From positions 5,613 to 69,612 of the forward strand of contig JAKQHR010000070.1 of assembly GCA_029557905.1 (NCBI GenBank): DNA of 64,000 bases. The letters run 5' to 3'. This stretch comes from Verrucomicrobiota bacterium. Its GTDB lineage: Bacteria > Verrucomicrobiota > Kiritimatiellia > JAKQHR01. The notes below the pieces were generated by a model that saw only the letters and a list, made by a program, of their open reading frames with translations, was not told where the DNA came from and searched no databases. Positions 1 through 63,294 of the stretch are shown one piece after another (the stretch's first letter is position 1; each line of letters opens with the position of its first letter). The translations under genes and the position numbers were made by a program.

Positions 1-375
1 TCGCGGAAGCGCTTCAAGATCCGAAAGCACGGAAGCCCCTGTGGTGGTGAAGCCCGAGATGGTCTCAAACACGGCGGATACCGGATGAAGGATCACCCCG
101 GAAAAAACATAGGGCAGCGCGCCGAACAGCGCCGCGGAAAGCCAGCCGATGGTCACCACCCCGAAACCGTCCCGCCGGGAAAGATTGATGTCGCCGTGTG
201 TGAGCACCCCGACAAGGCCCGACACCGCAATGGTGATAACCCCGGAGTGGATGAAGGCATTGATCACCGTGAAGGTGTCGCCATAGTACCAGGAAACGGC
301 CGCGCAGGCCGTGATGGCGAGACCGATAACAAGGGTCATATAGGCCACCAGATGGAATACAGCGCGTTTGTTCAT
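1..375 (-). CDS. trkH: Trk-type K+ uptake membrane subunit TrkH, N-terminal part; gene runs off window start
   Basis: ATG on minus strand at 373-375, 11 nt after trkA stop. Translation MNKRAVFHLVAY...ETISGFTTTGASVL contains the TrkH-like GFTTTGA motif. The plus-strand ORF 85..393 is antisense to it. Confidence 0.55.
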   Translation of the reverse strand, partial: MNKRAVFHLVAYMTLVIGLAITACAAVSWYYGDTFTVINAFIHSGVITIAVSGLVGVLTHGDINLSRRDGFGVVTIGWLSAALFGALPYVFSGVILHPVSAVFETISGFTTTGASVLSDLEALPR

Positions 376-4348: not shown

Positions 4349-4969
4349 TCAGTTAAAAAAGTCCGCAAACCATGTGGCGGCCCGGTCCTCCGCAGACTGC
4401 ATGAACCGCATCTTACGCCTGCCGCAGATTTTTACAAGGCCATCCGCATCCATATCGGGCCAGTTGATCCGGCACCGCTCCAGAAGAATCTGAAAGACAT
4501 GCCCGCAGTAAAGCGCATCCTCCGCGGCCCGGTGGAACCGGCCGCAGGGCACCTGAAACACGCGCACCAGCGTGCCAAGCTGATAGTTTGGAAGTCCGGG
4601 CCACAGCTTCCGGCTCAGCGTCAGAGTGTCCAGCACCAGGCCCGTCGGAGCCGCGCAGGCCAGTCTCCGCACGGCCGCGTTGATGAATTTGAAGTCGAAT
4701 CGTGCATTGTGCGCCACCAGCGGGAGATCTCCGCAGAACTCCGCGAAACGCGGCAGCACTTCTCCAATCTGCGGACTGCTGCTCACCATCTCGTCCGTGA
4801 TCCCGTGTATTCTGGTCGCCCCTCGAGGAATGGGCCGGCCCGGATCAATCAGCTCGCTGAAAGATTCCCCCGGGATGCCGTCGCTGAACCGCACCGCGCC
4901 TATTTCAATGACGGCATCGCGGTGCGGAGATATCCCGGTTGTTTCGGTGTCGAATGCGACGAAATCCAT
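4349..4969 (-). CDS. DnaQ-like DEDDh 3'-5' exonuclease (DNA pol III epsilon family)
   Basis: Exo I motif FVAFDTETTG, Exo II VAHNARFDFKF, Exo III HRAAEDALYCGHV. Overlaps the upstream MazG-like gene by 1 nt. Confidence 0.75.
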   Translation of the reverse strand: MDFVAFDTETTGISPHRDAVIEIGAVRFSDGIPGESFSELIDPGRPIPRGATRIHGITDEMVSSSPQIGEVLPRFAEFCGDLPLVAHNARFDFKFINAAVRRLACAAPTGLVLDTLTLSRKLWPGLPNYQLGTLVRVFQVPCGRFHRAAEDALYCGHVFQILLERCRINWPDMDADGLVKICGRRKMRFMQSAEDRAATWFADFFN

Positions 4970-6454: not shown

Positions 6455-7522
6455 ATGAATCTAGGCATCATTGGACTGCCCCAGACGGGCAAAAAAACCG
6501 TTTTTGAGCTGCTGACCGGCATCCACGCGCAGAAGGCTGTCACGAAGGACGGCATCGCCTATGCCATGGCAGCCGTGCGCGACCCGCGCGTGGATAAACT
6601 TTCGGCCATGTACAAGCCCAAGCGCACGCGCTATGCGGAGTTCGAGATGGCGCTGCCTCCCGACATCCAGCCCGATGCCAGCCGCAATGCCGGCTGGATC
6701 GAGCCGCTCCGGCGCGTGGATGCCCTGCTCCATGTCGTCCGCGCCTTCGAAGCCCCGGAGGTTTTCCATATCAAAGGGGATGTGAACCCGGCGCGCGATT
6801 ATGATCTGGTCGAGACCGAACTGCTGCTGGCCGATCTGGGAACCGTCGAGACGCGCCTGACCCGCATGGCGAAGGAAATCAAGAAGAAGGGCGACACCAC
6901 CAGCGACCGCGAGGAGGCCGTTCTGAAACGGTGCCAGCAGCACCTCGAAACCGGCGCGCCGCTGCTGACCATGCAGTTCTCCGATGAGGAACTTAAACTT
7001 GTTGCCAGCCTGAAATTTCTAACTCTGAAGCCCGTCATCACCGTCTTCAATACCGGTGAAAACATTTCCAAAGCGCGCGAAGCATTGAAGGACACCGAAA
7101 CGCGGATCAAAAAGCATGGTGCGGAGCCCGTGTATCTGAGCGCATCCATTGAGAAGGAAATGCTTGAGCTTTCAGAAGAAGAACGCGCGATGTTCATGGC
7201 TGATCTTGGGATTGAAGAGCCGGCCGCTCACCGCCTGTCGCGCGCGGTGTACGCAAGTCTGGGCCTGATCAGTTTCTTCACCGTCGGACCGGATGAAGTC
7301 AAGGCGTGGCCGCTCCGCGCGGGCACAAGAGCCCCGCAGGCGGCCGGGAAAATTCACACCGATCTTGAGCGCGGATTCATTCGGGCCGTGACCATCTCCT
7401 ATGATCACCTCATCGAGGCCGGCTCCGAACACACCGCCAAAGAGAAGAATTACTATGTCCTGAACGGCAAGGATTATGTCGTCAAGGACGGCGACGTCAT
7501 CGAAATCAGATTCAATGTTTAG
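6455..7522 (+). CDS. ychF: Ribosome-binding ATPase YchF (Obg family GTPase)
   Basis: G1 motif GLPQTGKKT, 355 aa, conserved C-terminal TGS-like end KDYVVKDGDVIEIRFNV. Confidence 0.85.
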   Translation: MNLGIIGLPQTGKKTVFELLTGIHAQKAVTKDGIAYAMAAVRDPRVDKLSAMYKPKRTRYAEFEMALPPDIQPDASRNAGWIEPLRRVDALLHVVRAFEAPEVFHIKGDVNPARDYDLVETELLLADLGTVETRLTRMAKEIKKKGDTTSDREEAVLKRCQQHLETGAPLLTMQFSDEELKLVASLKFLTLKPVITVFNTGENISKAREALKDTETRIKKHGAEPVYLSASIEKEMLELSEEERAMFMADLGIEEPAAHRLSRAVYASLGLISFFTVGPDEVKAWPLRAGTRAPQAAGKIHTDLERGFIRAVTISYDHLIEAGSEHTAKEKNYYVLNGKDYVVKDGDVIEIRFNV

Positions 7523-9465: not shown

Positions 9466-10368
9466 ATGCATATACCGCAAGCCATGTTGCAGGGAACGAT
9501 TTGTCCAGTGACGGCCGCCGCCAGCGCGGCCGGGATCGCCGGAGCAGCCTTTGCCGCTGTTAAGTCAAAGTTCAAACCGGTCGCCGGACGTTTCGCTGCG
9601 GTTACCGCGCTGATCTTCGCGGCGCAGATGATCAACTTCCCCATCTCCGGGGGCACATCCGGCCATCTGCTGGGCGGCGTGCTGGCCTCCTCGCTGCTGG
9701 GCACCCCGCTGGGCATGCTGAGCATCGCCCTCGTGGTGGCCGTGCAGGCCCTTGTCTTCTCCGATGGCGGGCTCACGGTGCTCGGAGCAAACATTTTCAA
9801 CATGTCTATCGTCGGCACGGGGCTGGGCGGACTGATTCACAGCACGCTGAGCGCAAAGAATAATACCAGAATCTTCACGGCTGCTTCCGCGGGCATTGCC
9901 GCATGGATATCCGTTGTGGCGGCCTCTTTTGCGGTTTCCGTTGAACTCAGCGTTGCCGGAACCATCCCCTTCTCCACGGTCATTGCGGCCATGATTTCGA
10001 CCCACGCGGTGATCGGCATCGGTGAAGGCCTGATCACTGCCGCCGCGGTTTATGCGCTGGCCTCCCGGCCCGCAGAAGAGAAAGTCCGCGGCAGCGTTGC
10101 CATCCCGCTCTCCGCGGCGGCAGTCCTCGGACTGATGATCAGTCCGTTTGCGTCCTCTCTGCCCGACGGGCTGGAATGGGTGGCGGAGAAGTACAGCTTC
10201 CTTCATGAGAGCGCCCCGGCCTTCGTGGCGGTCATGCCGGACTACACCATCCCGGTCATATCGTTTGAAATGCTTTCAACAGGCCTTGCGGGCCTTGCGG
10301 GCGTCGTGATCTGCTTCGGCATCGCATGGATCTCGGCTCAAACTCTGCTTGCCCGCGCCCGGAGATGA
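9466..10368 (+). CDS. cbiM: CbiM/NikM-like ECF-type cobalt/nickel transporter substrate-capture subunit (possibly CbiMN fusion)
   Basis: Begins MHIPQAML (CbiM-type MHIPDG N-terminus). Multi-TM. AGGAGC RBS 6-11 nt upstream. Longer than a typical CbiM, so may include a CbiN-like C-terminus. Confidence 0.6.
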   Translation: MHIPQAMLQGTICPVTAAASAAGIAGAAFAAVKSKFKPVAGRFAAVTALIFAAQMINFPISGGTSGHLLGGVLASSLLGTPLGMLSIALVVAVQALVFSDGGLTVLGANIFNMSIVGTGLGGLIHSTLSAKNNTRIFTAASAGIAAWISVVAASFAVSVELSVAGTIPFSTVIAAMISTHAVIGIGEGLITAAAVYALASRPAEEKVRGSVAIPLSAAAVLGLMISPFASSLPDGLEWVAEKYSFLHESAPAFVAVMPDYTIPVISFEMLSTGLAGLAGVVICFGIAWISAQTLLARARR

Positions 10369-10848: not shown

Positions 10849-11835
10849 TCAGCCGCGATTTTTCCGGAAGAGTTTTCTAAGTCCGGTTCCTCCCAGCCCG
10901 GCCAGAAGCAGCGTCAAGCCTGTCGCCGCAGTGCCCTTTGCGCTGCCGGCCTTGCGCCGGTTGTAGGTTTCGACCGATTCGGTGGTGATGATGCCAATGC
11001 GCGCGGGCACCGGGACGTCCAGCACCGTTGCGAAGTCGTCGTACAGATGCGAGGGATCAGGATCAAGAATGCCCGTCACGTCAAACGGCTCCGTGCCTGG
11101 AAGAACCTCGTGCGGGAGCATGACGAACAGCCGGCCGCCCATGCCCTCCGCCACGGGATAATAGCGGAGGGGCTTGAAATCCCATGAATAATCCGTGATC
11201 AGCAGCAGCGCATCCTCCGGGATCTCCTGCCCGTACTCCTTTTCCGCCACCGCAAGGATATCCTTCAGGTCGTGCTCCAGTTCAGGCCACGGCATGTTTT
11301 TCTTGAGTTCCGCCAGACGTGTCAGCGGTCCTTCATGCTCCTGTGCCCGGAGCCATGATTTTCCTGCCGCTTCATCTGCTTTGAAAACCGGCGACAAAGC
11401 CCAGAGCGAAAGACCGCTGCCTCGGACGGGCGCCAGCAGGCGCTCGCGCAGCACCTCATCTGCCTTCCCTTTCTTCCGGCTCAGAATCTGCAGCCGCAGA
11501 TACTCGGCTTCCAGCGGCTTGGTGATATGCACAACTGTACCCAGAAACGCCAACGCATCGGACGGCAGCCCCGCCGCGAGATCCAGCGGATAGCGCTGAT
11601 CGGTCGGCCGGCCGGTGTAAACCGGGCGAACAGACGCGGTGGGATAAATCACATGATCCGTATCAAGCTGAACGCTCATGCGGACATAATGGTTGTCATC
11701 CTCACTGAGCAGGATTTCCGCCTGCTGCACCGACAGCGTCTCCGGCGTCAACGGCAGCGGCGGATACTTGTGAAACATCATCGCGGCCAGCGCGAGCAGA
11801 ACACTTCCGGCAATCATCATCAACCATCTGAACAT
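10849..11835 (-). CDS. Membrane-anchored protein of unknown function with C-terminal TM plus basic tail
   Basis: N-terminal TM (MFRWLMMIAGSVLLALAAMM). C-terminus GTAATGLTLLLAGLGGTGLRKLFRKNRG resembles a C-terminal sorting-type anchor. Start could instead be at 11931. Confidence 0.35.
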   Translation of the reverse strand: MFRWLMMIAGSVLLALAAMMFHKYPPLPLTPETLSVQQAEILLSEDDNHYVRMSVQLDTDHVIYPTASVRPVYTGRPTDQRYPLDLAAGLPSDALAFLGTVVHITKPLEAEYLRLQILSRKKGKADEVLRERLLAPVRGSGLSLWALSPVFKADEAAGKSWLRAQEHEGPLTRLAELKKNMPWPELEHDLKDILAVAEKEYGQEIPEDALLLITDYSWDFKPLRYYPVAEGMGGRLFVMLPHEVLPGTEPFDVTGILDPDPSHLYDDFATVLDVPVPARIGIITTESVETYNRRKAGSAKGTAATGLTLLLAGLGGTGLRKLFRKNRG

Positions 11836-11952: not shown

Positions 11953-12065
11953 GAAAAATCAATGAAAAAAGGCTATTTTTCAGCATTTTAGGCCGTTTTG
12001 GGCACTTTTTGGTCGTTTTGTGGCATTTTTTCGTTGTTTTTTTAGACTTTTCGGCTGTTTTCTTC
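11953..12065. promoter_or_regulatory. Phased A/T-tract element (about 10-bp periodic T4-7 tracts): predicted intrinsically curved DNA upstream of arsR1
   Basis: ggctattttt/cagcatttta/ggccgttttg/ggcacttttt/ggtcgttttg/tggcatttttt/cgttgttttttt/agacttttc/ggctgtttt. 9-10 T-tracts at helical phasing. Similar element at 52590-52700. Followed by TTGACA at about 12088. Confidence 0.5.
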
Positions 12066-12109
12066 ACCGGCGGAATGCCGCCAGAAGTATTTGACATTTT
12101 CGCCAAATA

Positions 12110-12424
12110 GTGCATTTTATTTGCATGAACAATAAACGGAAAAGCAGACTGGACGGCCGCGCCAAAATCATGAAGGCCCTCGCCCACCCCGCGCGCCTGC
12201 TCATCGTTGAGGAACTCTCCGGAGGCGAGCGGTGCGTGTGTGAATTCGTGGATATGATCGGCGGCGATTTTTCCACCGTGTCCAAGCATCTCTCCGTGCT
12301 GAAGAAAGCCGGACTGGTCATGGACCGGAAAAGCGGTCTGCAGGTCTACTATTCTCTCCGCTGTCCATGCGTGCTGAAGTTTTTTGACTGCCTCGCCGAT
12401 GTGATTGCTGAACAGAAAGGCTGA
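12110..12424 (+). CDS. arsR: ArsR/SmtB-family metalloregulator
   Basis: HTH region with ELSGGERCVCEFVDMIG (ArsR ELCVC-type As(III) site) and FSTVSKHLSVLKKAGLV. Confidence 0.8.
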   Translation: MHFICMNNKRKSRLDGRAKIMKALAHPARLLIVEELSGGERCVCEFVDMIGGDFSTVSKHLSVLKKAGLVMDRKSGLQVYYSLRCPCVLKFFDCLADVIAEQKG

Positions 12425-15179: not shown

Positions 15180-15616
15180 GAACAATGCTTGCCTTGCTCC
15201 TTGCCGTCGTTGCGGGAATGCTTCTTCCCTCCCCGGACAGCTGTGCGCAGTCTCCAACCAATGCACCGTCGGACAGCGGTCTCGTGATGTACTATTTCCA
15301 TCGCACCGGCCGCTGCCAGGGATGCCTGGAGATTGAGCGCCTGACCCGAAAAACGGCGGACGAATTCAAGGAGGAATATCCGCTGGATCTTTTCACTCTC
15401 GAAGTGAAGAACCTGGACGAGCCGGAGAATGAGCGCTTTGCAGATGATTTCAAGGTCACCTTCAACACGGTGGTCATTGCAAGCCGGAAAGACGGCGTTG
15501 TGGCCGGTTGGACCAATCTGAACGATCGGGTCTGGAATCTGTATTCCGACGAAGGCAGTTTTGTGGACTGCATCAAGGAAGAACTGCGAAAACGGCAGCC
15601 GGACCAGCCGGAGTAA
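15176..15616 (+). CDS. Secreted thioredoxin-like CxxC lipoprotein (TlpA-like?)
   Basis: ATG overlaps the ccdA stop (ATGA). Signal peptide MRTMLALLLAVVAG..SC. CxxC in YYFHRTGRCQGCLEIERL. Confidence 0.4.
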   Translation: MRTMLALLLAVVAGMLLPSPDSCAQSPTNAPSDSGLVMYYFHRTGRCQGCLEIERLTRKTADEFKEEYPLDLFTLEVKNLDEPENERFADDFKVTFNTVVIASRKDGVVAGWTNLNDRVWNLYSDEGSFVDCIKEELRKRQPDQPE

Positions 15617-15669
15617 TTTCTTCATTTTTCGCGTTGACGCACTGCGTCCCCTGTTCTATATTTCGTTAT

Positions 15670-16053
15670 ATGGCTAAATATAGAAATATGAATCTTCGCG
15701 GGGCGGAGGCTGTTTTTCAGGCCCTGTCGGACAAGGGCCGCCTTCGCATCCTGTGCGCGCTCCGCCACGGGGAACTGTGCATCTGCTGGATTGTCGAAAT
15801 GCTGGGCTTCGCCCCCTCCACCGTATCCAGGCACCTTTCGGTTCTCCGCAGCGCCGGACTGATCCAAACCCGCAAGCAGGAGCGCTGGGTTTACTGCTCG
15901 CTGCCCTCCATGCCCGTTTCTCCAATCATTGGAAAAATACTCCCGCAGATATTCCAATCACTGGAAAATTCACCGGAAGTCCGGGCGGATGCGCGGCTGA
16001 TTAAACGAATCCTTAAAAAAGAGGCATCGAAGTGCAAAATCCGGAAAAAATGA
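15670..16053 (+). CDS. arsR: ArsR-family As(III)-responsive repressor (second copy)
   Basis: HGELCICWIVEMLG (ELCVC-type site) and STVSRHLSVLRSAGLI HTH. Start at the internal ATG (MAKYRN). Confidence 0.75.
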   Translation: MAKYRNMNLRGAEAVFQALSDKGRLRILCALRHGELCICWIVEMLGFAPSTVSRHLSVLRSAGLIQTRKQERWVYCSLPSMPVSPIIGKILPQIFQSLENSPEVRADARLIKRILKKEASKCKIRKK

Positions 16054-16478
16054 AAATCCTGTTTCTCTGCACCGGAAACTCCTGCCGGAGCCAGATGGCC
16101 GAGGGCTGGGCTCGGCATCTGAAGGGCGATGTGATTGAGGCGTATTCCGCGGGCATTGAAACGCACGGGCTGAATCCGCTGGCCGTGAAGGTCATGAATG
16201 AGGCCGGAGTGGATATTGCCGGACACCACTCAAAGAACCTTTCTGATCTGGCCGACGTACAATTTGATTATGTGATCACCGTCTGCGACAACGCCCACGA
16301 GTCCTGCCCGATCTTTCCGGGAAAAACAAAAGTGGTGCATGCCGGATTCGACGATCCGCCGAGGCTGGCGAAGGACGCAATATCTGAGGCGGAAGCCCTC
16401 GCCCATTACCGGCGCGTGCGGGATGAAATCAGAGCGTTTGTCGAATCACTGCCGGAGAAACTGGAAATAATGGAATGA
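16050..16478 (+). CDS. arsC: Arsenate reductase, LMW-PTP/thioredoxin-coupled type
   Basis: P-loop MKILFLCTGNSCRSQMAEG (CX5R) and CDNAHESCP with downstream Cys. Alternative start at 16032. Confidence 0.8.
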   Translation: MKILFLCTGNSCRSQMAEGWARHLKGDVIEAYSAGIETHGLNPLAVKVMNEAGVDIAGHHSKNLSDLADVQFDYVITVCDNAHESCPIFPGKTKVVHAGFDDPPRLAKDAISEAEALAHYRRVRDEIRAFVESLPEKLEIME

Positions 16479-16557
16479 TGGAATATTGGAATAATGGAGA
16501 AGCCATGAAATCAGCCGGAAGCAGTTTATATCCTCGTCTTCCCACCATTCCAATATT
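16479..16557. promoter_or_regulatory. 14-bp inverted repeat (TGGAATATTGGAAT ... ATTCCAATATTCCA) between arsC and arsM: hairpin/attenuator or operator
   Basis: Perfect 14-nt arms at about 16489-16502 and about 16539-16552, separated by about 36 nt. The left flank shares the 17-mer AATAATGGAATGATGG with 13813-13840. Confidence 0.45.
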
Positions 16558-16574
16558 CCAACCCGACAGGAGCC

Positions 16575-17351
16575 TTGACCATGTCCTCAAGAAATAAAGA
16601 CAAGATCAGACAGAATGTACGCGGCCGCTATGCCGGCATTGCGGAAGGCAAGAGCTGTTCCTGCTGCTCCGCGCCGCAGGAATCGGCAAAGCTTGGCTAC
16701 ACGGAACAGGACCTTCGCGATGTTCCCGAAGGATCCGACATGGGACTTGGATGCGGAAATCCGCAGGCGATAGCGGCACTCAGGCCCGGCGAAACCGTGC
16801 TGGATCTCGGATGCGGCGGAGGATTCGACTGCTTTCTCGCTGCTCGGCAGGTTGGTGATTCCGGACTCGTGATCGGCATAGACATGACCGCCGAAATGAT
16901 TTCCAAGGCGCGCGCCAATGCCGAGAAATGCGGCGCAAGAAATGTTTCCTTCCGGCTGGGCGAGATCGAATATCTGCCCGTGGCGGATTCATCCGTGGAC
17001 GTCATCATATCCAACTGCGTGATCAATCTTTCGCCAGACAAGGAACAGGTTTTTGCGGAAGCATTTCGCGTGCTGAAGCCGGGGGGGCGGCTGGCCATTT
17101 CGGATGTAGTGGCCGTCAAACCCCTGCCCGAGAATACAATCCGCAACATGGATCAGTACTGCGGATGCGTATCGGGAGCCATGGCCATCGCTGAACAGGA
17201 GCGCATTCTAAGAAAAACCGGCTTCACAAGCGTCAAAGTCACACCCAAACCGGAGAGCCGGGAATTCATCCACACCTGGTTCCCGGGAACCGGAATTGAA
17301 GATTGCGTTTTATCGGCAGATATTACCGCTGTAAAATCAGGAGGCAAATGA
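16575..17351 (+). CDS. arsM: Arsenite S-adenosylmethionine methyltransferase ArsM
   Basis: SAM-MTase motif [10 protein letters not shown]. Conserved ArsM cysteines (N-terminal CSCCS, C-terminal YCGCVSGA). 258 aa. Confidence 0.8.
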
Positions 17352-22463: not shown

Positions 22464-22556
22464 TTCAAAAGTTCCAATCATTGGAAGTTTCTGCGCGAAA
22501 AGTTCCAATGATTGGAAGTTTTTTTGCAAAAAGTTCCAGCCATTGGAAGTTTTGAA
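22464..22556. repeat. Array of 3 near-palindromic units (AAAGTTCCAAT-SA-TTGGAAGTTTTT), 31-bp period, ending 13 nt before the glycogen synthase ATG
   Basis: GTTCC cores at 22471, 22502 and 22533. Inverted repeat TTCCAAT/ATTGGAA around each core. Second, similar array at 43941-44030. Confidence 0.8.
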
Positions 22557-43940: not shown

Positions 43941-44030
43941 CGTTTTTTCCAATGATTGGAAGTTTTTTCGGGAAAAGTTCCAATGATTGGAAGTTTTTCA
44001 AGCGAAAGTTCCAATGGTTGGAACTTTTTA
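43941..44030. repeat. Second array of 3 near-palindromic TTCCAAT-N2-ATTGGAA units, 31-bp period, 15-18 nt upstream of the DUF3108/rfaE/kdsB operon start
   Basis: TTCC cores at 43947, 43978 and 44009. Unit is about 85-90% identical to the array at 22464-22556. Confidence 0.8.
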
Positions 44031-45170
44031 CGGCCGGACCAGCCGGCCCATGAAGAGAATCGCGCCGGTCTGCCGGTCACGAATGATGTAAATGAACGGA
44101 TGGTCGGCGCGAAAGACCGGCTGGCGTCTTGCTGCGGTTTTGACCATGACAACCGCCGTGGCCGCGGCCGCTTCGGTGCCCTCCTCATTCACCTCGACCA
44201 GCGCGGAATGGATCACATCCGAGATGAAGAGTTCCGGCTCGCCGGTGATGCCGCTGAAATCGGCCCGGGCTGAGAACGCGATACCCATGCCCATTTCAGA
44301 GAGGACTTCCTTCAGGCCGGCGTTCTGCTGCGCGGTGAAGCGAGGGATGCTGACGTCCACTTGTGTTTTTTTCAGGTTGTCAATGCACTGCTTCAGCAAA
44401 GTCTCGTCCAGCTTCTGTTCCAGATCGCTGATCCCGTCCCGTTCGCGCGGGAGCAGAAGCAGCATGGCGACGCGCTCGCCGATGTACGGCATTTCCAGCG
44501 CCTGGAAACTGGCGGCATCGGCATAAAGAAACTCGCCGTTCTGCTTCATCATCGGGACTTTCACCGGCGCTGATCCTGAATGAAAAAGTTCTTCGCGCGT
44601 GTCAGTCTCAGCAAAAGCCTTCGCCCATTTCCCCTTGAACCAGATTGTGTTGGTGAGAACCAGCCGCGCAAGAGCATTGAGCGCCCCGGCCGGGAGAAGC
44701 TCCCTGATCCGGCCGGCCGTGGCCAGGCCGATCCAGCTGTTGATTGTCTGCCGGGCCGCTTCGGCATCCGCCTTGAAGTCCACGGGCTGGATGTCGGCAT
44801 CGAACACCTGCTGCAGCGCATTTTCATAGACCTCCCGAATATAGAAACCCTCCTGCGGCCACATGCGGTTGGATATCTGCATCCGCGGGCCGCCGAACGA
44901 TGATATTTCGCGCAGAGACCTGATCCGGGCTGTCATCTGCGCATCGTACTCCGCGGGATCGGCCGGGACACCGAGGGTGGCGGCCATGACCGAGGCGGTT
45001 TCGGCGCGCGCACCCTTGAAGGCCATGCCCAGGGCGGTGCTAATACTGTGGGGCGAGCACGCCACATTTCCCTCCGTTGCGGCGAGCCGGTGATAGAGCT
45101 TGAGCGCGAAAGCGCTATCGTCCCCTCGGACAGAGATGGCAAACAAAAGAAGTAGAATCAGTTTTTTCAT
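44028..45170 (-). CDS. Serpin (serine protease inhibitor), secreted
   Basis: Signal peptide. Reactive-centre-loop hinge GTEAAAATAVV and C-terminal FRADHPFIYIIRD. Confidence 0.85.
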   Translation of the reverse strand: MKKLILLLLFAISVRGDDSAFALKLYHRLAATEGNVACSPHSISTALGMAFKGARAETASVMAATLGVPADPAEYDAQMTARIRSLREISSFGGPRMQISNRMWPQEGFYIREVYENALQQVFDADIQPVDFKADAEAARQTINSWIGLATAGRIRELLPAGALNALARLVLTNTIWFKGKWAKAFAETDTREELFHSGSAPVKVPMMKQNGEFLYADAASFQALEMPYIGERVAMLLLLPRERDGISDLEQKLDETLLKQCIDNLKKTQVDVSIPRFTAQQNAGLKEVLSEMGMGIAFSARADFSGITGEPELFISDVIHSALVEVNEEGTEAAAATAVVMVKTAARRQPVFRADHPFIYIIRDRQTGAILFMGRLVRP

Positions 45171-52275: not shown

Positions 52276-52390
52276 TAGTCCTGTTCCGGCAGAAGATTTA
52301 CACTCCGCAGCAAAAAAGTCAATTTGCCGTAAACGGAATCTTGCCCGGCAGGCATCAAGACTGTAGATTGAGGGGTGAAATCAGGAAATC

Positions 52391-52582
52391 ATGGAGATAC
52401 ATATGAAGGATCATAAACTGGTATGCGCGGGGGATCACAAGGGGCATATCTGTCTGCTGGCCAGCCAGAACAAATTTGACCAGATCATGGAAATCACAAA
52501 GAAACCCGCCTTCATCTGCTTCAACTGCGGCCGGGTGGCGGACAATGCCTGCAATTTGTGCAATCCGATGCCCTTGAAGTAA
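52391..52582 (+). CDS. Small Cys/His-rich zinc-ribbon-like protein
   Basis: 63 aa with CAGDHKGHIC and CFNC...CNLC pairs. RBS-like GAGG upstream of the alternative ATG at 52403. Confidence 0.35.
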   Translation: MEIHMKDHKLVCAGDHKGHICLLASQNKFDQIMEITKKPAFICFNCGRVADNACNLCNPMPLK

Positions 52583-52589
52583 TCTGCAT

Positions 52590-52700
52590 AAAAAAGCTGT
52601 TTTTTAGTCATTTTTAAGCGTTTTTTGTTGATTTTACGGCATTTTTTGCCTTTTTAGGCCATTTTTTCGCGTTTTTAGGCCATTTTTGGAACTTTTTAGC
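52590..52700. promoter_or_regulatory. Phased T-tract element (10 T5-6 tracts at about 10.3-bp period): predicted curved DNA immediately upstream of nadA
   Basis: gctgtttttt/agtcattttt/aagcgtttttt/gttgatttt/acggcatttttt/gcctttttag/gccatttttt/cgcgttttt/aggccattttt/ggaacttttt. Shares the GGC(C)ATTTTT decamer with 11953-12065. Confidence 0.5.
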
Positions 52701-52717
52701 AAAGAAAGGCTGTTCCA

Positions 52718-53752
52718 ATGTCTGCAGGCAGAATGTATGAAATACTGAAGGCTAAACTCGCGCGCGTGGTGCCGGATATCGAACTGCGCTACAAAGCCGA
52801 AATCGCCGAAGAAATTGTCGAACTCAAAAAGAAGCGCAATGCCGTCATCCTTGCGCACAACTACATGGAGCCGGCTCTGTTCTACAGCATCGCCGATTTC
52901 ACAGGCGATTCGCTTGATCTGAGCCGCAAGGCCGCCACCACGGACAAGGATATCATTGTTTTCTGCGGAGTCCGCTTCATGGCAGAGACCGCCAAGATTC
53001 TGAGCCCGGACAAGACCGTTCTTCTTCCGGCTGAAAAAGCGGGCTGCTCCCTGGCTGAAAGCATTACCGCCGATGATGTGCGGGAAATACGCCGCCAGTT
53101 TCCCGACGCGCCGGTGGTGACGTATGTAAACACCTATGCCGATGTGAAGGCGGAAACGGACATTTGCTGCACTTCCGGCAACGCCCGCGCCGTCATTGAA
53201 TCTTTGAACAGCAAGCGGATCATTTTCATTCCTGACCGCTACCTGGCGGCCAACACCGCGCGCACGATGGGGAAAAATATTGTATTCCCAAAGCGCACCG
53301 AGAAAGGATTCTCTTTTGACCCGATTGATTCCGGCTTTATCGGCTGGGACGGTTCCTGCGAAGTGCACGAGCGCTTTACGGTGGCGGATGTCAGCAATGC
53401 GCGCCGGCAGTTTCCCGATGTGCTGGTACTCGCCCACCCCGAATGTCCCGAATCTGTCTGCCAGGCTTCCGATTACTCGGGCGGGACGAATGGAATGATT
53501 AAATTTATCCAGAATTCCAAGGCAAACCACATTCTACTCCTGACAGAATGCTCCATGGCTGACAACGTCGCGGCGGCCAATCCGGACAAGGACTTGATCA
53601 GGATTTGCTCCATCCGCTGTCCGCACATGAATCTGATCACCCTCGAGGACACCCTTGCCGCGCTGCAGCAGAACCGTTTCGAAATCACCGTTCCGGAAGA
53701 CATCAGCCGGCGGGCCCGCAAGGCGGTCGAGCGCATGATCGCCATCGGATAG
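52718..53752 (+). CDS. nadA: Quinolinate synthase A
   Basis: VILAHNYMEPALFY ... conserved Cys (CGVRFMAETAKIL, CTSGNARAV, CSIRCPHM). 344 aa. Confidence 0.85.
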   Translation: MSAGRMYEILKAKLARVVPDIELRYKAEIAEEIVELKKKRNAVILAHNYMEPALFYSIADFTGDSLDLSRKAATTDKDIIVFCGVRFMAETAKILSPDKTVLLPAEKAGCSLAESITADDVREIRRQFPDAPVVTYVNTYADVKAETDICCTSGNARAVIESLNSKRIIFIPDRYLAANTARTMGKNIVFPKRTEKGFSFDPIDSGFIGWDGSCEVHERFTVADVSNARRQFPDVLVLAHPECPESVCQASDYSGGTNGMIKFIQNSKANHILLLTECSMADNVAAANPDKDLIRICSIRCPHMNLITLEDTLAALQQNRFEITVPEDISRRARKAVERMIAIG

Positions 53753-55229: not shown

Positions 55230-58200
55230 CTATTCCCTGTCGGCATCCTGAAGGATGGTTTCCAGGCGTGAGTTCAACTGCATAATGCGCTGCTTGAGTT
55301 CCTCCGATGTAACCTCATCAACCCCCTGCCCGGCGCGCTCCAGCTTGCGAAGCTCGCGGCTCATTCTTACGCTTTCACGGGAGAGTTCATCCACCTGATT
55401 GCGGACTTCTCCCAGACGGGTAATGGTCTGTTCCGACTCTTCCAGCCTCTTCTGCAGCTTCTCGTTTTCCTTCTGGAGCACACCGATACGGTCCGAGGCC
55501 CGTGCGGCCTGACCGTTGAGATCCGAAATCTTCGCTTCAGACTGGCTCAGCAGAGTCTGCAGTTCAGCGGCGCGATCCGCCACCTTCTCCGCATTTTCAA
55601 GGGCATTGGATGTTTCGAGCAGCCTTGCCTGGAGGGTTCGCGCTTCAGCTCTAGCCGTCTCAGCCGCACCGGAAGCGGCCTGTTCAGACTCACGAAGCGC
55701 GGCAATCTCCGCATCACGCCGGCCCAGTTCCGACTGCAGCGATGTGTTGCTGCGGCGCAGATCATCGGCCGCCGCATTGGCTTCCGTGGCGGCGGCCTGC
55801 CACTGCGCGGCATCCCGGGTCAGTCCAGTCATCTGCTCTCTCAGACTGTCAATCCGGGCACGCAGTTCGCCGGCTTCCTCAACCTCGCGCGACAGCTCCC
55901 AAAGCTCGCTTTTCAGCTCCTTGATGCGCGCCTCCTGCTGCGCGCTGTTGTCCGCTGCGGTCTTCAGGGCATTGTTGGCCTCCGTAAGGTTCGCCACAGT
56001 GGCATTTGCGGCATCCAAAGACTCCGCGGATTCGGCCAGGCGGCTTCTCAGTTCTCCGGTCTGGGCCGTCAGCCGGTCGCGTTCCGCCGACAGGGCCGTA
56101 TTCAGCTCATTGAGCCTGGCCATGCGGTCTTCAAACGCGCTCCTGTTCTGCTGAAGAGACGCAATCTCTGCAACCGCTTCCGCATGTTTTCCGCGGGTCT
56201 CTGCCAGCTCAGTATTTGCCCTGTCCAGCGCTGCCTTGAATTTCTGCATTTCGGCGGCGAGGCTGTCTTTCTTTCCGGCGGCGGCGGCTTCCGCCTTCTC
56301 AAGCAGCGCAATCCGTGTATTGGCCGCGCGCAGCGCCTCATTGGCCTGTTTCAGAGAGGCTTCAAGCTGTCCTGCGCGAGACTCGAGATTCTTCACTGTT
56401 TCTTCAGCCCGGTCCGTCTGCGCCGCCCTGCGCTCCGCATCCAGAAGCCGGCTCTTAACCTCCTGCACCTCTTTTTTCACCGCGGCATAATCTTCCAGGG
56501 ACGCCTGCAGTTCAACCATCCGGGAAGCCAGTCCGGAGCGCTCGATGGACAGCTGGCGCACCTGCTCCTCCAGCTTCTTCACATTGTCGGCAGCAAGCTT
56601 CTCCGCCTCGATCAGAGTGGCCTTCTCCGCTTCATAAGCCGCCAGTTTCTCCCGGAGGCCTGCGCAGTCCTTCTCCAGAAGATCCTTTGATTTCGCGAGT
56701 TCATTCAGCTGATCCCGAAGCGGGAGAAGTTCCGCCTCGCGGGCAGCGGCATCGGCCAGGCTTTTTTCCAGTTTCGCTTTTTCACTGTCCATGGACATCA
56801 GCCGGGCATCCTTCTGTTTGACAACCTCCTGCACGGCCTCGATTTCCTTCGAACAGCGGCGAATTTCCTTCTCGGCATCCATCACCTGCGCAAAGAGTTC
56901 TTCTTTCTTGACCAGCAGGGCATCCCGCTCCGTCAGCAGAGAGGCCATCTCTTTTTCCCTGTCTGCCAGCCGGCGAGTCGCATCCTTTAAGGCGGATTCC
57001 AGATCCTGTTTAGTTTTCGAGAGATCCGTCTGCGCGCTCTGGAGCGCGGCAAGCTCCACGCTCAGCTTGTCCCTTTCCTGCCGGAGCGCTTCAAGCGATT
57101 TGGTCGCATTCGACGCTTCAGAACGGATCGCCAGCAGGGCCTTTGAACTTTCCGCAAGCTGCACCCCCAGACCGGCGGCATCGGCCGTCACGCGGTTTTT
57201 CTCTTCGGTCAGCCGCGTGACCGCAGCGGTCAGATTCCGGACATCGGCAGAGAGACTATCCTTTTCCTTCTGCGCCTGAACCAGATCATCCTGTGTCGCC
57301 TTAATCTGATCCCGGGCAGCCTTCAAATCCCGCTGGGATTTGCTGAAATCCGCCTGCAGTTTGCTCATGGCGGCTTCCTTTGCCTCCGACTGCTTCTTAA
57401 TTCCCGCCAGTTCGCGGGTCAGCGCATCGTTGCGGCTCTTTTCAGACTTCAGCGCATCCGCAGCAGCGGATGCTTCAGCCTGAAGCGCAGACAGAGCGGT
57501 TTCCATTTCCGCTTTGGCTCCGGCAAGCTGTGTCGCGTTCTTTTCCAGATCGGAGGAAAGACTGCGGACCTGCGCCAGATCTTTCTGGGTCTGCGTGAGT
57601 TCGGCTGCCAGTGTGTCCCTGCTCTGCTTCAGCGCATCCAGTTCGCCCGCCAGCGCATCTCTTTTGGCGGCTGTTTCGGCCTGTGCCTTCTGCAGGGCAT
57701 CCAGCGCGTTCTGCGACACCTTCAAATCTTTCGCCAGTGCCTCAGCCTTCTGGCGTGCCGGCTTGATGGCGCCCTCTGCCTCAACCAGCTTCTTCTCGGT
57801 TTTTTCAAGGGCCGAGGAAAGGCTCGATTTCTCCTTCCCGAGCGCGGCAATTTCTTTGCGCGCGGCCTTCAAATCATCCTGAGCGACGGCAAGTTCAGCC
57901 AGCCGGGCGTCCATGTCAGCCAGTTTGGCCGCAAGGGCTGTCTTTTCCTTTTCAAGTTCCGACGCGCGGGCCTCTTCGGACTTCAACCGGGATACCGTCT
58001 GCTCGAGCTCAGAGGCACGAGTTCCAGCCTCCGCGCGAGCCGCCGAAACCTGTTCCCCCAGCTGTTCGATCTGCCCTTCCAGCGAACTTTTTGAATCAGC
58101 AAGGCTCTTGACCTGCGATATGACCATATCCCGTTCGGCCGTCAGTGCGGCAACCGTATCTGCAAGCGCCTTGTTTGCATTCTCCAGTTCATTTGCGCGC

Positions 58201-59807
58201 TCGCCCTTCTTTTCTGCCGCGGAGAGATCTTTTGCAAGTTTCTGATTCTGCTGTCCCAGAGCCCTGATTTCCTGCTGCAGCCCGGACATGGCGGCAGACT
58301 GATCCTGTGTGAGCTTTTCCAGTTCGGCGGCCTGAATCCCAAGCTCTTTTGCATCCGCGAGCTGCTTTGAAAGGTCTTTGTTGGCGGATTTCAGCCCGGC
58401 AATCTGATCTTCCAGCGCCTTGAGGCTTTCCACTTTTTTCTGCAAAGAAGCAATCTGTCCGGTCAGAGACTTGTTCGTCTTCAGCGCCGCATCCAGTTCC
58501 TTTCTGACAGCGGCAATCCGGTCATCCATTTCCTTCACAGAGGCTTCTGCTGCGGCTTTGGCTGCATCAATTGCGGCTTTTTCGGCCGCCGTTTTCTCCA
58601 AAGCGGAGTTCAGTTCCGCCTTGTCCTTTTCCAGCTGCTCACGGGCTTTTACCAGCCCCGAAAGTTCCTGCTGGCGGGACAGCAATTCCTCCTTAAGCGC
58701 CGCCGCCTGCGCAGACAGCTCTCCAGCGGTCTTTTCCAGCGCGGTTCGGGCATCGGTCAGCGTTTTCACCTCCGCCCGGGAAGAAGACAGCTGCGCATTC
58801 AGGTCCTTGTTCGAGGACTTCAGCCCCGAAATTTCATCCTTCAGTTCCGGAAGGGTCGTCAGCTTCTTTTCCAGCGCGGCCCGGGCATCAGCCAGATCCT
58901 TTGACTCCGCCTTCGATGCAGAGAGCTGCGCGTTCAGATCCTTGTTGGAAGATTTCAGCTTCTCGATTTCCTCCTTAAGGCCCGGGACTGCGGCAAGCTG
59001 CTTATCCAAATCAGCCACCTGTTCTGCAAGCGCCAGCTTCTCCTTTGCCGCGCGCTGGATTTCGCCGTCGCGGTCCTTCACGTTCGAAGCCAGGACCCCC
59101 AGCTGTTCTTTCAGAGAATCCATTTCCCCCTGCATTCCTGCCATCGCCTGATCCCGCTGCGCCAGGGCGGCCTGGGATTTTTCCACGTCCTGCGCCAGCG
59201 CCTTCAACGACTTCTCCAGCAAGGACTTTTCCTTCCCCACAGCCTTGACCTGGTCCTCAAGGGCATCCACCGTATTCAACCGGGCCTGCATTTTTTCAAC
59301 ACTGGCCTGCAGCGTGTCTCTTTCTTTGGAGAGCACCGATATGCTTTTAGTTTTCTGCTTGAGGTCTTCCGACATATCCGACAGCTTTTTGTCCAGCGCC
59401 TGATTCTGTCCGGTCATATCCGCAATTTTCTTTTCTGACGCCTCAATCTGAGCCTGCAGATCCTTCAGGCGGCCCGAAGCCGCCTTTGCCGCGTCCCTCA
59501 TGCTTGCGCGCCGCTCACGGGCCGCCTGTTCCTCGCGGGCCACGGCCGCCTGCTTTTCCTTTTCAAGGCGGTCGAGGGCGGCCTGCATATCCGCCGCCTG
59601 TGCTTTCAGGGAGGCATGCTCCGCCGACAGGTTTTGAAGCTTAGTCCTCGCATCGGAAAGCTCCTGCTGGAGCTGCTGAACCTTGCGCACCGCCGCACTG
59701 GCCACCTCTCCCACCTGCGGGAAAGATTCTTCGGCCGCGCGCAGAAAACCCGGGCATGCCAGCAGCATCGCGGCGATCAGATATACATGTGTCTTAAGCA
59801 TCTTCAT
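55230..59807 (-). CDS. Giant secreted coiled-coil protein (1525 aa), no ATPase motifs
   Basis: Signal peptide MKMLKTHVYLIAAMLLACPGFLRAAEE. The rest is A/E/K/L/Q-rich heptad-like sequence with internal repeats. No Walker A seen, so not SMC. Confidence 0.7.
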   Translation of the reverse strand: MKMLKTHVYLIAAMLLACPGFLRAAEESFPQVGEVASAAVRKVQQLQQELSDARTKLQNLSAEHASLKAQAADMQAALDRLEKEKQAAVAREEQAARERRASMRDAAKAASGRLKDLQAQIEASEKKIADMTGQNQALDKKLSDMSEDLKQKTKSISVLSKERDTLQASVEKMQARLNTVDALEDQVKAVGKEKSLLEKSLKALAQDVEKSQAALAQRDQAMAGMQGEMDSLKEQLGVLASNVKDRDGEIQRAAKEKLALAEQVADLDKQLAAVPGLKEEIEKLKSSNKDLNAQLSASKAESKDLADARAALEKKLTTLPELKDEISGLKSSNKDLNAQLSSSRAEVKTLTDARTALEKTAGELSAQAAALKEELLSRQQELSGLVKAREQLEKDKAELNSALEKTAAEKAAIDAAKAAAEASVKEMDDRIAAVRKELDAALKTNKSLTGQIASLQKKVESLKALEDQIAGLKSANKDLSKQLADAKELGIQAAELEKLTQDQSAAMSGLQQEIRALGQQNQKLAKDLSAAEKKGERANELENANKALADTVAALTAERDMVISQVKSLADSKSSLEGQIEQLGEQVSAARAEAGTRASELEQTVSRLKSEEARASELEKEKTALAAKLADMDARLAELAVAQDDLKAARKEIAALGKEKSSLSSALEKTEKKLVEAEGAIKPARQKAEALAKDLKVSQNALDALQKAQAETAAKRDALAGELDALKQSRDTLAAELTQTQKDLAQVRSLSSDLEKNATQLAGAKAEMETALSALQAEASAAADALKSEKSRNDALTRELAGIKKQSEAKEAAMSKLQADFSKSQRDLKAARDQIKATQDDLVQAQKEKDSLSADVRNLTAAVTRLTEEKNRVTADAAGLGVQLAESSKALLAIRSEASNATKSLEALRQERDKLSVELAALQSAQTDLSKTKQDLESALKDATRRLADREKEMASLLTERDALLVKKEELFAQVMDAEKEIRRCSKEIEAVQEVVKQKDARLMSMDSEKAKLEKSLADAAAREAELLPLRDQLNELAKSKDLLEKDCAGLREKLAAYEAEKATLIEAEKLAADNVKKLEEQVRQLSIERSGLASRMVELQASLEDYAAVKKEVQEVKSRLLDAERRAAQTDRAEETVKNLESRAGQLEASLKQANEALRAANTRIALLEKAEAAAAGKKDSLAAEMQKFKAALDRANTELAETRGKHAEAVAEIASLQQNRSAFEDRMARLNELNTALSAERDRLTAQTGELRSRLAESAESLDAANATVANLTEANNALKTAADNSAQQEARIKELKSELWELSREVEEAGELRARIDSLREQMTGLTRDAAQWQAAATEANAAADDLRRSNTSLQSELGRRDAEIAALRESEQAASGAAETARAEARTLQARLLETSNALENAEKVADRAAELQTLLSQSEAKISDLNGQAARASDRIGVLQKENEKLQKRLEESEQTITRLGEVRNQVDELSRESVRMSRELRKLERAGQGVDEVTSEELKQRIMQLNSRLETILQDADRE

Positions 59808-62800: not shown

Positions 62801-63281
62801 AATCAATCTGCTCGCGCAGGTCCTCATTCTGCTCCAGCAGTTCTGAATACTTGGTCCGATAGAAATCCACGGACTGTGCGGAGGGAGCCGCCGCCGCACG
62901 GGCGGCCGGAGCCGGGGCTTTTGCAGGCGCCTTTTCTGCCGGGGCAGGAGCAGGTTTCGCCGCCGAAGCCGGCGCCGAGGCAATCTGCGGGCGCAGGGCA
63001 TCCATCTGGTCACGACAGTACGTCAGCCGGTACTGGACGATGTCCTTCTGCCAGTCGGGATGCGATTCGCTCAGCTCCTTATACAGGTTGTACGAGCGCT
63101 CATAGGCCTCGAACGCCGCGACCAGATCGTTGTTGCCCTTTGCCCTGTCGCCCGCCACGGTGGCGGAATAGGCGTTCAGCTGAAGCTGCTGTGCGGACTG
63201 TGCAGGCTGCGCCTGTGCAGGCACGCCGGCCGCAAGCAGGGCCAGCAGCAGTCCAAATGCGATAAATGTGTTTCTGTTCAT
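59838..63281 (-). CDS. Giant secreted coiled-coil protein (1147 aa), paralog-like partner of 55230-59807
   Basis: Signal peptide MNRNTFIAFGLLLALLAAGVPAQA. ATG at 63281 chosen over the six-frame start at 63548, which overlaps the TPR gene. Nearly continuous coiled-coil. 30-nt gap to the downstream gene. Confidence 0.65.
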   Translation of the reverse strand: MNRNTFIAFGLLLALLAAGVPAQAQPAQSAQQLQLNAYSATVAGDRAKGNNDLVAAFEAYERSYNLYKELSESHPDWQKDIVQYRLTYCRDQMDALRPQIASAPASAAKPAPAPAEKAPAKAPAPAARAAAAPSAQSVDFYRTKYSELLEQNEDLREQIDSLQAQINSAPVPVADDGAKWRAQHEAVSAQNKELQKRIAQLEQDVRAKSSVSAGGDQQLRQKILALTDDNQKIQEKLAEAHAEMSALRGSMLGEEQLNMKVTDLDAQLQARGRDVDALKQENQMIRNDLAAVQSERDGLAGQIEEVNAKWRANLTKVANELKKVRGDAGMLEVELRKTEARARAAEDQLNQAQQAATAIPALESKVAVAEDLLRKADADIKKLVTEKDQLSARLADMERVEKEAQARSAQALADAEKREKEALSRSARALSEEQKKADELKSQISDLTAQLAKKDKELQKQAEDLSMRQKKFEASAQSEYARKEKDLLARVKAAEDKEARLNDEMTGLIMASNAMDKRLSAAETERKALLSQRDDMRRQLEEVKSDYLKMAQGSADTAAETAAVKSDLKKAADALAQAEQERDRLKAQVVTLLPQAESAKKLAADLEAARMERDSLQEKYTEAERKAAASSALEEQLKQVQSEKADVEKQYQAELKKAADLQAKTAEAERNARENSDMAASLTAELKQVKQERAALDTELTAQISDLRAKLDQEKARSAGFEKSVQDIRKAGEGDRKRVEALQQEIKAREDTAGRQAAEAEQKITALTKDLEGRNAQIEKLTKDLNSVEPRIKEMQDRVQSAELRAEGNARARDALQKGLSGKIEKAEAEAKALRKTVEALQAETAASVKASQDAASDAERLKAEATKLGSQLKTVSDEKAALQSQLAKLEEQYQATAPLRDRNKVLEKQAGELQKAASQMEKRIASLLNEQTSMQEAAASSAGAVKELESRLNSLMAENKAVSGERNKLEAQNKSLSDEIAAVKASAAAAADALAAAKADGDKTAGILRQQIADMQSQVDELGKALKKSEGSVKRGEEAVAKSRAMADELKIAQQRHADAARQAAALSDETKALSAEIAALKKAAAAGEKLQKKAGEENAALQKQLAETAGKLEKTASERTELVEKVKLLEAELREATKVLQELAN

Positions 63282-63294
63282 TGGTTCGACTCCT

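Follow-up and report, generated by a model that had tools for sequence, protein, structure and literature searches.

Helically Phased T-Tract Arrays Upstream of arsR, nadA and Other Genes of an Uncultured Kiritimatiellia Bacterium: Conserved Tracts, Drifting Spacers and a Predicted DNA Bend

Introduction

Forty years after phased A-tract DNA became known, its function in bacteria continues to be debated. In bacterial genomes, phased A-tracts are found above all in intergenic DNA and in promoters (PMC516772, PMC9825172); an intergenic AA/TT periodicity has been reported (PMC516772), and E. coli has clusters of A-tracts, each about 100 bp long (Tolstorukov et al. 2005, as cited in PMC9825172). 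These clusters consist of A/T runs without TpA steps, spaced at the helical repeat and mainly intergenic; the roles proposed for them lie in transcription and in nucleoid-protein binding and, as for REP/BIME elements, in nucleoid folding or supercoiling (Tolstorukov 2005, as cited in PMC9825172; PMC3940949).

Phased A/T tracts are also found 5′ of individual genes, in curved promoter activators and UP elements, such as those of rrnB P1, phage SP82 Alu156, Clostridium perfringens plc and cyanobacterial psbA (PMC9825172). In the RpoD promoters of Campylobacter jejuni, T-stretches of the non-template strand recur every 10–11 bp upstream of genes, and this periodic T-rich signal replaces the −35 box (Petersen et al. 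2003, as cited in PMC9825172). The curved DNA regulated by H-NS at proU and rcsA flanks the promoter or lies downstream of it, and it is there that the protein nucleates (PMC6070653). Two eukaryotic systems are also close in their build: the bent region of kinetoplast minicircles (Leishmania/Crithidia), in which a series of A5–6 tracts on one strand, separated by G/C spacers (e.g., GGCAAAAAATGCC), gives a near-circular curvature; and the periodic An/Tn clusters (PATCs) of C. elegans, dispersed clusters of A/T tracts with a 10-bp period, which have been proposed to act through DNA mechanics as insulators (bioRxiv 10.64898/2026.08.08.743475).

We describe here two arrays found in a 64-kb stretch of DNA from an uncultured Kiritimatiellia bacterium (the whole stretch is called “the window” below): element 1, upstream of arsR, and element 2, upstream of nadA. 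They are a particularly regular, lineage-expanded example of the long-known helically phased A/T-tract curved DNA. Sharing the build of the E. coli clusters, they and their sister arrays are longer and much more regular (9–14 tracts, GGCC-type spacers), with a period of 10.2–10.3 bp instead of about 11 bp; they occur in a 58% G+C genome and are kept at orthologous sites even though their spacers drift. They resemble upstream activators in that the arsR and cvpA arrays precede a TTGACA; UP elements, however, span about 20 bp at −40 to −60, whereas the present arrays span 90–140 bp and begin 16–29 bp upstream of a −35-like hexamer, and some of them, unlike UP elements, lie downstream of promoter-like sites, those of nadA and malQ reaching the ribosome-binding site. 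The arrays differ from the Campylobacter promoters in lacking a conserved extended −10 on their 3′ side, in belonging to a G+C-rich genome and in being limited to some of the genes. The kinetoplast bent region, for its part, belongs to a eukaryotic organelle, occurs once per minicircle and is not gene-proximal; PATCs belong to eukaryotic chromatin, extend over kilobases and come from Helitron minisatellites. As to proU and rcsA, their curved DNA depends on a protein of the H-NS type and on an acquired, AT-rich setting, and an island context was looked for at the ars operon and not found.

Two Strongly Phased T-Tract Arrays in the Window

A preliminary description of the window had singled out about ten consecutive T4–7 tracts, some 10 bp apart, upstream of an ars island, and had noticed the same kind of sequence near 52590–52700, upstream of nadA. 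The second array is indeed there, and the gene context (arsR, followed by an ArsP permease gene, and nadA) was rightly given in both cases (Table 1); tract length and spacing also hold for the first array, except that it has nine tracts. Those of element 1 start at 11976, 11986, 11996, 12006, 12016, 12026, 12037, 12048 and 12058 (spacings of 10, 10, 10, 10, 10, 11, 11 and 10; mean 10.25 bp), and those of element 2 follow each other at 11, 10, 11, 10, 9, 11, 10, 11 and 10 (mean 10.33 bp). Two corrections concern composition: the G+C content of the window is 57.8% and not above 60%, and the ggcNNttttt decamer is only a loose description of the unit, the spacers of both elements being G/C-rich (GGCC, GGC, GCG and similar, often with GGC/GGCC) and variable.

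Table 1. Coordinates (window numbering) of the two arrays and their surroundings, and accessions of proteins encoded beside other arrays of the species.
Feature	Position	Strand	Basis or remark
Divergent gene, lineage-specific hypothetical membrane protein	10849–11835	−	ATG 141 bp from element 1
Two A-tracts at 5′ edge of element 1 (A5 11954–58, A6 11965–70)	11954–11970	+	Sequence
Element 1: nine phased T4–7 tracts, G/C-rich spacers	11976–12061	+	Sequence
TTGACA, −35-like hexamer	12091–12096	+	29 bp 3′ of element 1
arsR (HTH_5), first gene of arsR-ArsP-thioredoxin-DsbD operon	12125–12424	+	Pfam
Promoter-like TTGCCC-N17-TAGATT	52341–52369	+	Upstream of 59-aa ORF, in 89%-conserved region
Small ORF, 59 aa, Cys-rich	52403–52582	+	Conserved; stop codon 17 bp 5′ of element 2
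A6 tract at 5′ edge of element 2	52591–52596	+	Sequence
Element 2: ten phased T4–6 tracts	52600–52697	+	Sequence
GAAAGG, Shine-Dalgarno-like motif of nadA	52707–52712	+	Conserved (alignment); 9 nt past last T-tract
nadA (quinolinate synthase)	52718–53752	+	Pfam; protein HNS80824.1, uncultured Kiritimatiellia bacterium MAG GCA_035341175.1
Array neighbour MalQ			HNS80436.1
Array neighbour DUF6785 protein			HNS80070.1
Array neighbour CvpA			HNS81199.1
Array neighbour [FeFe] hydrogenase			HNS80953.1; array at hydrogenase 3′ end
Exonuclease beside hydrogenase			HNS80951.1
Array neighbour Type-ISP-like methylase			HNS81709.1; arrays on both sides

The tracts had also been called highly non-random, and they are: none of the local composition-preserving shuffles (0/20000) was as periodic or gave as long a chain, and in shuffles of the whole window the longest chain had 3 tracts. 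A density of 9–10 T-tracts per 120 bp is reached only at elements 1 and 2, the next best place in the window having 5. The periodogram of T peaks at 10.2 bp in both elements, with a power in the 10–11 bp range of 3.9 and 6.4, respectively, compared with a 99.9th percentile of 4.1 and a median of 0.27 for the window; Tandem Repeats Finder (TRF) describes the arrays as units of 10/21 bp.

Strong intrinsic bending, which the preliminary description had expected, is what the curvature prediction returns. We computed the helix path per 126 bp under the Bolshoy-Trifonov dinucleotide wedge model and under one with an AA wedge only, absolute values being approximate: 164–171 degrees for element 1 and 132–161 degrees for element 2, against a window median of 24–28 and a 99th percentile of 72–78 degrees, and 33–41 degrees for shuffles of the same bases. 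Elements 1 and 2 are thus the top two places of the window for tract density, T periodicity and wedge-model curvature. With 9 and 10 uninterrupted tracts of at least 4 nt devoid of internal TpA steps, helical-repeat spacing and high predicted curvature, they belong to phased A/T-tract curved DNA. Bending models such as that of Goodsell et al. in 1993 reportedly favour GGCC-type spacers between A-tracts.

The third and fourth most curved places of the window (99–117 degrees) are of another kind, namely 31-bp tandem arrays of 2.8 copies each, at 22467–22553, just 5′ of a glycogen synthase gene (ATG at about 22570), and at 43947–44034, between serpin and DUF3108 genes. They have in common a 20-bp palindrome, AAGTTCCAATSATTGGAACTT, flanked by A/T runs, and look like triple operator sites three helical turns apart.

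Genomic Setting of the Two Arrays

Element 1 sits within the 289-bp divergent intergenic region between the membrane-protein gene and arsR, which is followed by genes for the ArsP permease, thioredoxins and DsbD. The TTGACA downstream of the array is conserved, reading TTGACT in the closest relative (L207); no convincing −10 follows it, and the consensus scan returned no full promoter. The arsR ATG lies 28 nt 3′ of this hexamer (12091–12127) and no Shine-Dalgarno sequence is present 5′ of it, so the arsR mRNA may be leaderless. An inverted repeat, CAAATA-N8-TATTTG (12105–12124), overlaps the TTGACA-to-ATG stretch and could be a putative ArsR operator. Further along the ars operon (15508–17351), a second ArsR-family gene and an ArsM-like SAM methyltransferase gene are missing from the otherwise syntenic operon of L207.

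Element 2 occupies the 135-bp gap between the small ORF and nadA, and the 20 nt from its last tract to the nadA ATG hold just the Shine-Dalgarno sequence. The protein of the small ORF is 83–97% identical in three relatives and matched no Pfam family; its cysteines follow the pattern CxxxxxxxxC ... CxxC ... CxxC, and this small protein may bind metal and act as a partner or regulator of quinolinate synthase. Upstream of it, the divergent intergenic region shared with a gene for an N-acetylglutamate-synthase-like protein (NAT; 52276–52402) is 89% identical across species of which 4-fold sites are only 48–63% identical, and appears to be a densely constrained regulatory region.

One near-identical strain (L002 2960–3010, corresponding to 52677–52727) differs by six clustered substitutions and one deletion, all of which fall within the two final units of the nadA array and the opening codons of nadA, the preceding 127 columns being identical; this cluster may mark a recombination breakpoint. 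Past nadA, two adjacent giant ORFs on the minus strand (55230–59807, 1525 aa; 59838–63548, 1236 aa) were considered as rpoB/rpoC and rejected, Pfam pointing to coiled-coil proteins with weak filament/crescentin-like matches; a word-indexed search found no relative of the 1525-aa protein at E ≤ 1e-100.

Tracts Are Conserved while Spacers Drift

The arrangement small ORF-array-nadA is also present in three relatives (L084, L086 and L085, in this order below), of which the nadA 4-fold sites are 0.63, 0.61 and 0.48 identical to those of the window. In the alignment of element 2, the T-tract columns are 0.91, 0.87 and 0.79 identical, as against 0.60, 0.58 and 0.42 for the spacer columns, which are indistinguishable from 4-fold sites. 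In each relative, 9–10 T-tracts of 4 nt or more are retained and the periodogram peaks at 10.0–10.2 bp; the A-run 5′ of the array is found in the orthologues as well. The same holds for the malQ array in two genomes of the lineage (tracts 0.92, spacers 0.47, 4-fold sites 0.63). Element 1, compared with the less diverged closest relative (L207-L216), follows this trend, as 39/43 tract columns and 35/43 spacer columns are identical, with 4-fold sites at 0.81. Conserved tract columns next to spacers that drift like 4-fold sites argue that it is the tracts, and not the sequence, on which selection acts.

The insertions and deletions are also informative. The array-bearing intergenic region is 145 bp long in L085, where a single 10-bp unit has been inserted in the nadA array, as against 135, 134 and 136 bp in the other three species; element 1 of L207 has +1 and −1 indels after which the register is restored. 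As one indel is a whole 10-bp unit and the others restore the register, the phase of the tracts is probably selected too, on evidence limited to two or three such indels. The nadA and malQ arrays, moreover, hold their exact position by the Shine-Dalgarno sequence/ATG across species. One has to keep in mind that conservation of T alone does not separate a constraint on DNA from a constraint on RNA.

A Dispersed Family of Arrays

In metagenome contigs from JGI, we looked for runs of five phased T-tracts in which one (flexible) spacer contains GGC, masks with fixed G/C positions having failed to fit all known arrays, and obtained at least 120 loci. Six contigs of the species of the window were among the matches listed; they were assigned on the basis of flanking proteins from the same MAG accession series and of their tetranucleotide signature (correlation with the window of 0.92–0.97, versus at most 0.91 for unrelated loci). 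This single Kiritimatiellia species thus has at least 10 arrays at 8 loci (arsR, nadA, malQ, cvpA, DUF6785, the hydrogenase 3′ end and both sides of the methylase gene; Table 1), each of 90–140 bp with 9–14 consecutive tracts.

No array of at least 4 tracts was found in 105 kb of more distant Kiritimatiellia-like relatives (NAT protein 54–57% identical), and the nadA loci of other phyla (NadA at most 68% identical), 1.2 Mb in all, contained none of at least 5 tracts. Arrays of T4–6 tracts with GGCC-like spacers are, on the other hand, common in phage contigs and in metagenomes whatever their G+C content, so the architecture is a general solution and not an invention of this lineage; with a generic 10-bp lattice pattern, the matches listed for viral contigs include AT-rich giant-virus DNA. 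Some metagenome contigs consist almost wholly of T-tracts phased at 10–11 bp, up to 16–22 units, in the manner of satellite-like curved DNA; they carry TTTTYGGCCA repeats (L295, L315, L280, L291) or TTTTGGGGCG repeats (L252, L316, L296, L334).

A dispersed repeat was among the possibilities first raised for element 1, and the arrays do form a genome-wide class; they are not, however, a sequence repeat with defined ends. In an all-against-all BLAST of the arrays, similarity is confined to the low-complexity tract region, without any common flanks, terminal repeats or target duplications, and the spacers differ from locus to locus and drift from species to species. A mobile element was rejected because common flanks and terminal repeats are lacking, and of the features of REP/BIME- or MITE-like families, the arrays have the many copies without the shared consensus with defined ends. 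A 65-nt stretch, 95% identical, is common to the two methylase-flanking arrays, and 45 nt are common to two others (L244b and L310a), which suggests occasional duplication or gene conversion.

The methylase-flanking arrays (L310 6131–6228 and 10034–10160, equal to L347 1939–2036 and 5842–5968) are direct repeats 3.9 kb apart on either side of a Type-ISP-like N6 methylase/restriction gene, and may be a recombination-prone cassette boundary. A palindrome, ATAGTACTA-N3-TAGTACTAT, adjoins arrays at L310 ~10165–10190 and L244 ~7465–7495, and a variant, ATATAGGACT-N5-AGTCCTATAT, adjoins a third array of the same species at L322 ~4690–4715 (minus-strand reading); the first form was not found in the 64-kb window.

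Arrays Relative to Promoters, Genes and Transcripts

All arrays are intergenic and 7/10 lie immediately 5′ of a start codon, with a distance and side to promoter or start codon that vary widely (0–460 bp). The T-tracts are on the sense strand in 7 arrays and the A-tracts in 2, the last array being between convergent genes, past a canonical intrinsic terminator; a rule of T on the sense strand fails for the two methylase-flanking arrays, and the 7:2 bias is not significant. At cvpA and arsR, a TTGACA stands 16 and 29 bp 3′ of the array, which is the classical place for upstream curved DNA. The malQ array, by contrast with these, extends to the ATG, with a GGAG Shine-Dalgarno sequence inside its last spacer and a TTGACA, conserved in two genomes, 45–60 bp 5′ of the array; the DUF6785 gene has TTGACT-16-TATTCT 46 bp 5′ of its array. 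Promoter placement is suggestive only, since a lenient hexamer scan gave about as many matches as expected by chance; scans found no sigma-70 consensus promoter and no terminator at elements 1 and 2, and no TAnnnT hexamer at the 3′ end of the nadA array, where none is conserved across the four species.

UP-like promoter DNA, one of the roles first considered, agrees poorly with these positions. The nadA and malQ arrays reach the Shine-Dalgarno sequence/ATG, so that a promoter could not fit 3′ of them; several arrays have promoter-like hexamers on their 5′ side, and one array sits behind a terminator. Judging from where they lie, the arrays are probably not a strict UP element, since their position relative to promoters varies. 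Several of them are probably transcribed, given the Shine-Dalgarno sequence within the malQ array, the TTGACA upstream of it and the short gap between the nadA array and its ATG.

At the RNA level, Rfam gave no match at either element, at gathering score or at E ≤ 1, and a structured cis-regulatory RNA such as the nadA-motif NAD+ riboswitch was rejected for want of an Rfam match and of a conserved structure. In element 1, the A-arm (11953–75) and the T-arm (12021–43) fold with z = −2.9; a hairpin or cruciform was nevertheless rejected, as the substitutions of L207 are not compensatory.

Possible Roles of the Arrays

Alongside the observed phasing, predicted curvature, conservation pattern, dispersal and intergenic placement, we put forward a reading that stands about an even chance of being right: the arrays would be architectural cis-elements of regulatory intergenic DNA that influence the transcription of their neighbours through the trajectory of the DNA. 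With T-tracts once per helical turn and G/C-rich spacers, small bends would add up in one plane, to about half a circle over about 100 bp; this bend would fix the local trajectory, the region being held at the apex of a supercoiled (plectoneme) loop. Alternatively, it would offer a pre-bent surface to RNA polymerase, for wrapping, or to a curvature-sensing nucleoid protein that may bind the arrays. Either route would set the transcription of the adjacent gene (the arsR operon, nadA), and such trajectory-based routes have been proposed before (PMC9825172; PMC516772; PMC3940949; Tolstorukov 2005, as cited in PMC9825172). Four observations speak for a property of the double helix, i.e., intrinsic bending: the period equals the helical repeat at all loci and in all lineages, the indels leave the register intact, the GGCC spacers are those optimal for curvature, and arrays occur in both orientations. 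We infer from there that the bend itself is selected and that its effect is on transcription.

The main live rival, which we hold to be unlikely, is a transcribed U-tract leader: a 5′ UTR or intercistronic RNA would serve as an unstructured U-rich platform for ribosomal protein S1, ribosome standby or translation enhancement, or as an Hfq- or Rho-type site, and the 10-nt period would be a by-product of 10/21-nt tandem duplication. The nadA array, which ends close to the Shine-Dalgarno sequence and has its only promoter-like site in front of the small ORF, suits such a leader, as do the malQ array and the DUF6785 array with their upstream hexamers and the preference for T on the sense strand; the RNA of element 2 is, furthermore, predicted to be unstructured, folding no better than shuffles (z = −0.58), and TRF does find 21-nt units. 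This leader would account neither for the two arrays with A on the sense strand nor for the one past a terminator, and at arsR and cvpA the TTGACA stands between array and gene. Nor would it explain why the period is that of the DNA helix at each locus and in each lineage, phages included, or why the whole-unit insertion and the +1/−1 compensation keep the register; the orientation bias falls short of significance and no Rfam family matches at E ≤ 1. As both orientations occur, a property of the duplex fits better than one of the RNA.

Somewhat more doubtful are generic chromosome-architecture sites, without any specific effect on arsR or nadA: the arrays would manage nucleoid folding or supercoiling by plectoneme pinning or by wrapping of gyrase or a nucleoid protein, and would be intergenic since coding sequence cannot hold them. 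Proposals of this kind exist in the literature (Tolstorukov 2005, as cited in PMC9825172; PMC3940949), and the variable distance and side to promoters and start codons, the two orientations, the convergent array and the tens of copies per genome implied by 2 arrays in the 64-kb window and 6 among the matches listed (JGI) are in keeping with them. Such sites should not be placed for the most part immediately 5′ of start codons, however, nor be held at a fixed place by the nadA and malQ Shine-Dalgarno sequence/ATG across species, and a universal packaging need is unlikely since the more distant Kiritimatiellia-like relatives sampled do without arrays.

A platform for xenogeneic silencing, nucleated by an H-NS/Lsr2-like protein at the border of an acquired ars island, had been suggested from the position of element 1 at the edge of an accessory island, and seems to us very improbable; we know of no silencer gene in this lineage. 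Curved AT-rich DNA is the preferred nucleation site of H-NS-type proteins (PMC1550270, PMC6070653), and nowhere near the ars operon is the G+C content lower than at element 1. The reading fails, all the same, on synteny and flat composition: the ars operon is found with the same genes on both flanks in the nearest relative and the G+C profile stays at 0.55–0.60 on either side without a step, while sister arrays stand at core metabolic genes (nadA, malQ, cvpA, hydrogenase). A functionless repeat, i.e., a neutral or selfish minisatellite grown by replication slippage, to which the TRF units and the 65-nt and 45-nt shared stretches could be referred, is just as hard to credit in the face of tract-versus-spacer conservation at orthologous sites, seen at two independent loci, where the arrays persist although synonymous sites are 37–52% changed and where 9–10 tracts are kept per species against a T4 tract survival of about 0.05–0.16 at neutral rates.

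Conclusions

The finding by itself leaves existing knowledge unchanged. Evidence from single loci for selection on tracts and phase rather than on sequence has, however, rarely been shown, and these arrays offer a clean natural example of it, with conserved tracts, neutrally drifting spacers and indels that keep the register, at several orthologous loci of an uncultured G+C-rich bacterium of the PVC group that is seemingly unusually rich in arrays.

A bolder and rather improbable extension is that this lineage has expanded tens of “super-curved” modules of 90–140 bp, absent from more distant relatives, to which a specific protein that recognises curvature, or supercoiling, would respond and which would constitute a lineage-specific layer of control or insulation; some of them would double as U-tract leaders with the ribosome-binding site in the last repeat, and the whole would be a bacterial counterpart of PATC-like mechanical insulators. 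Whichever way they act, the arrays would suit testing whether curvature as such controls expression, and they would provide a marker set for finding curvature-reading proteins.
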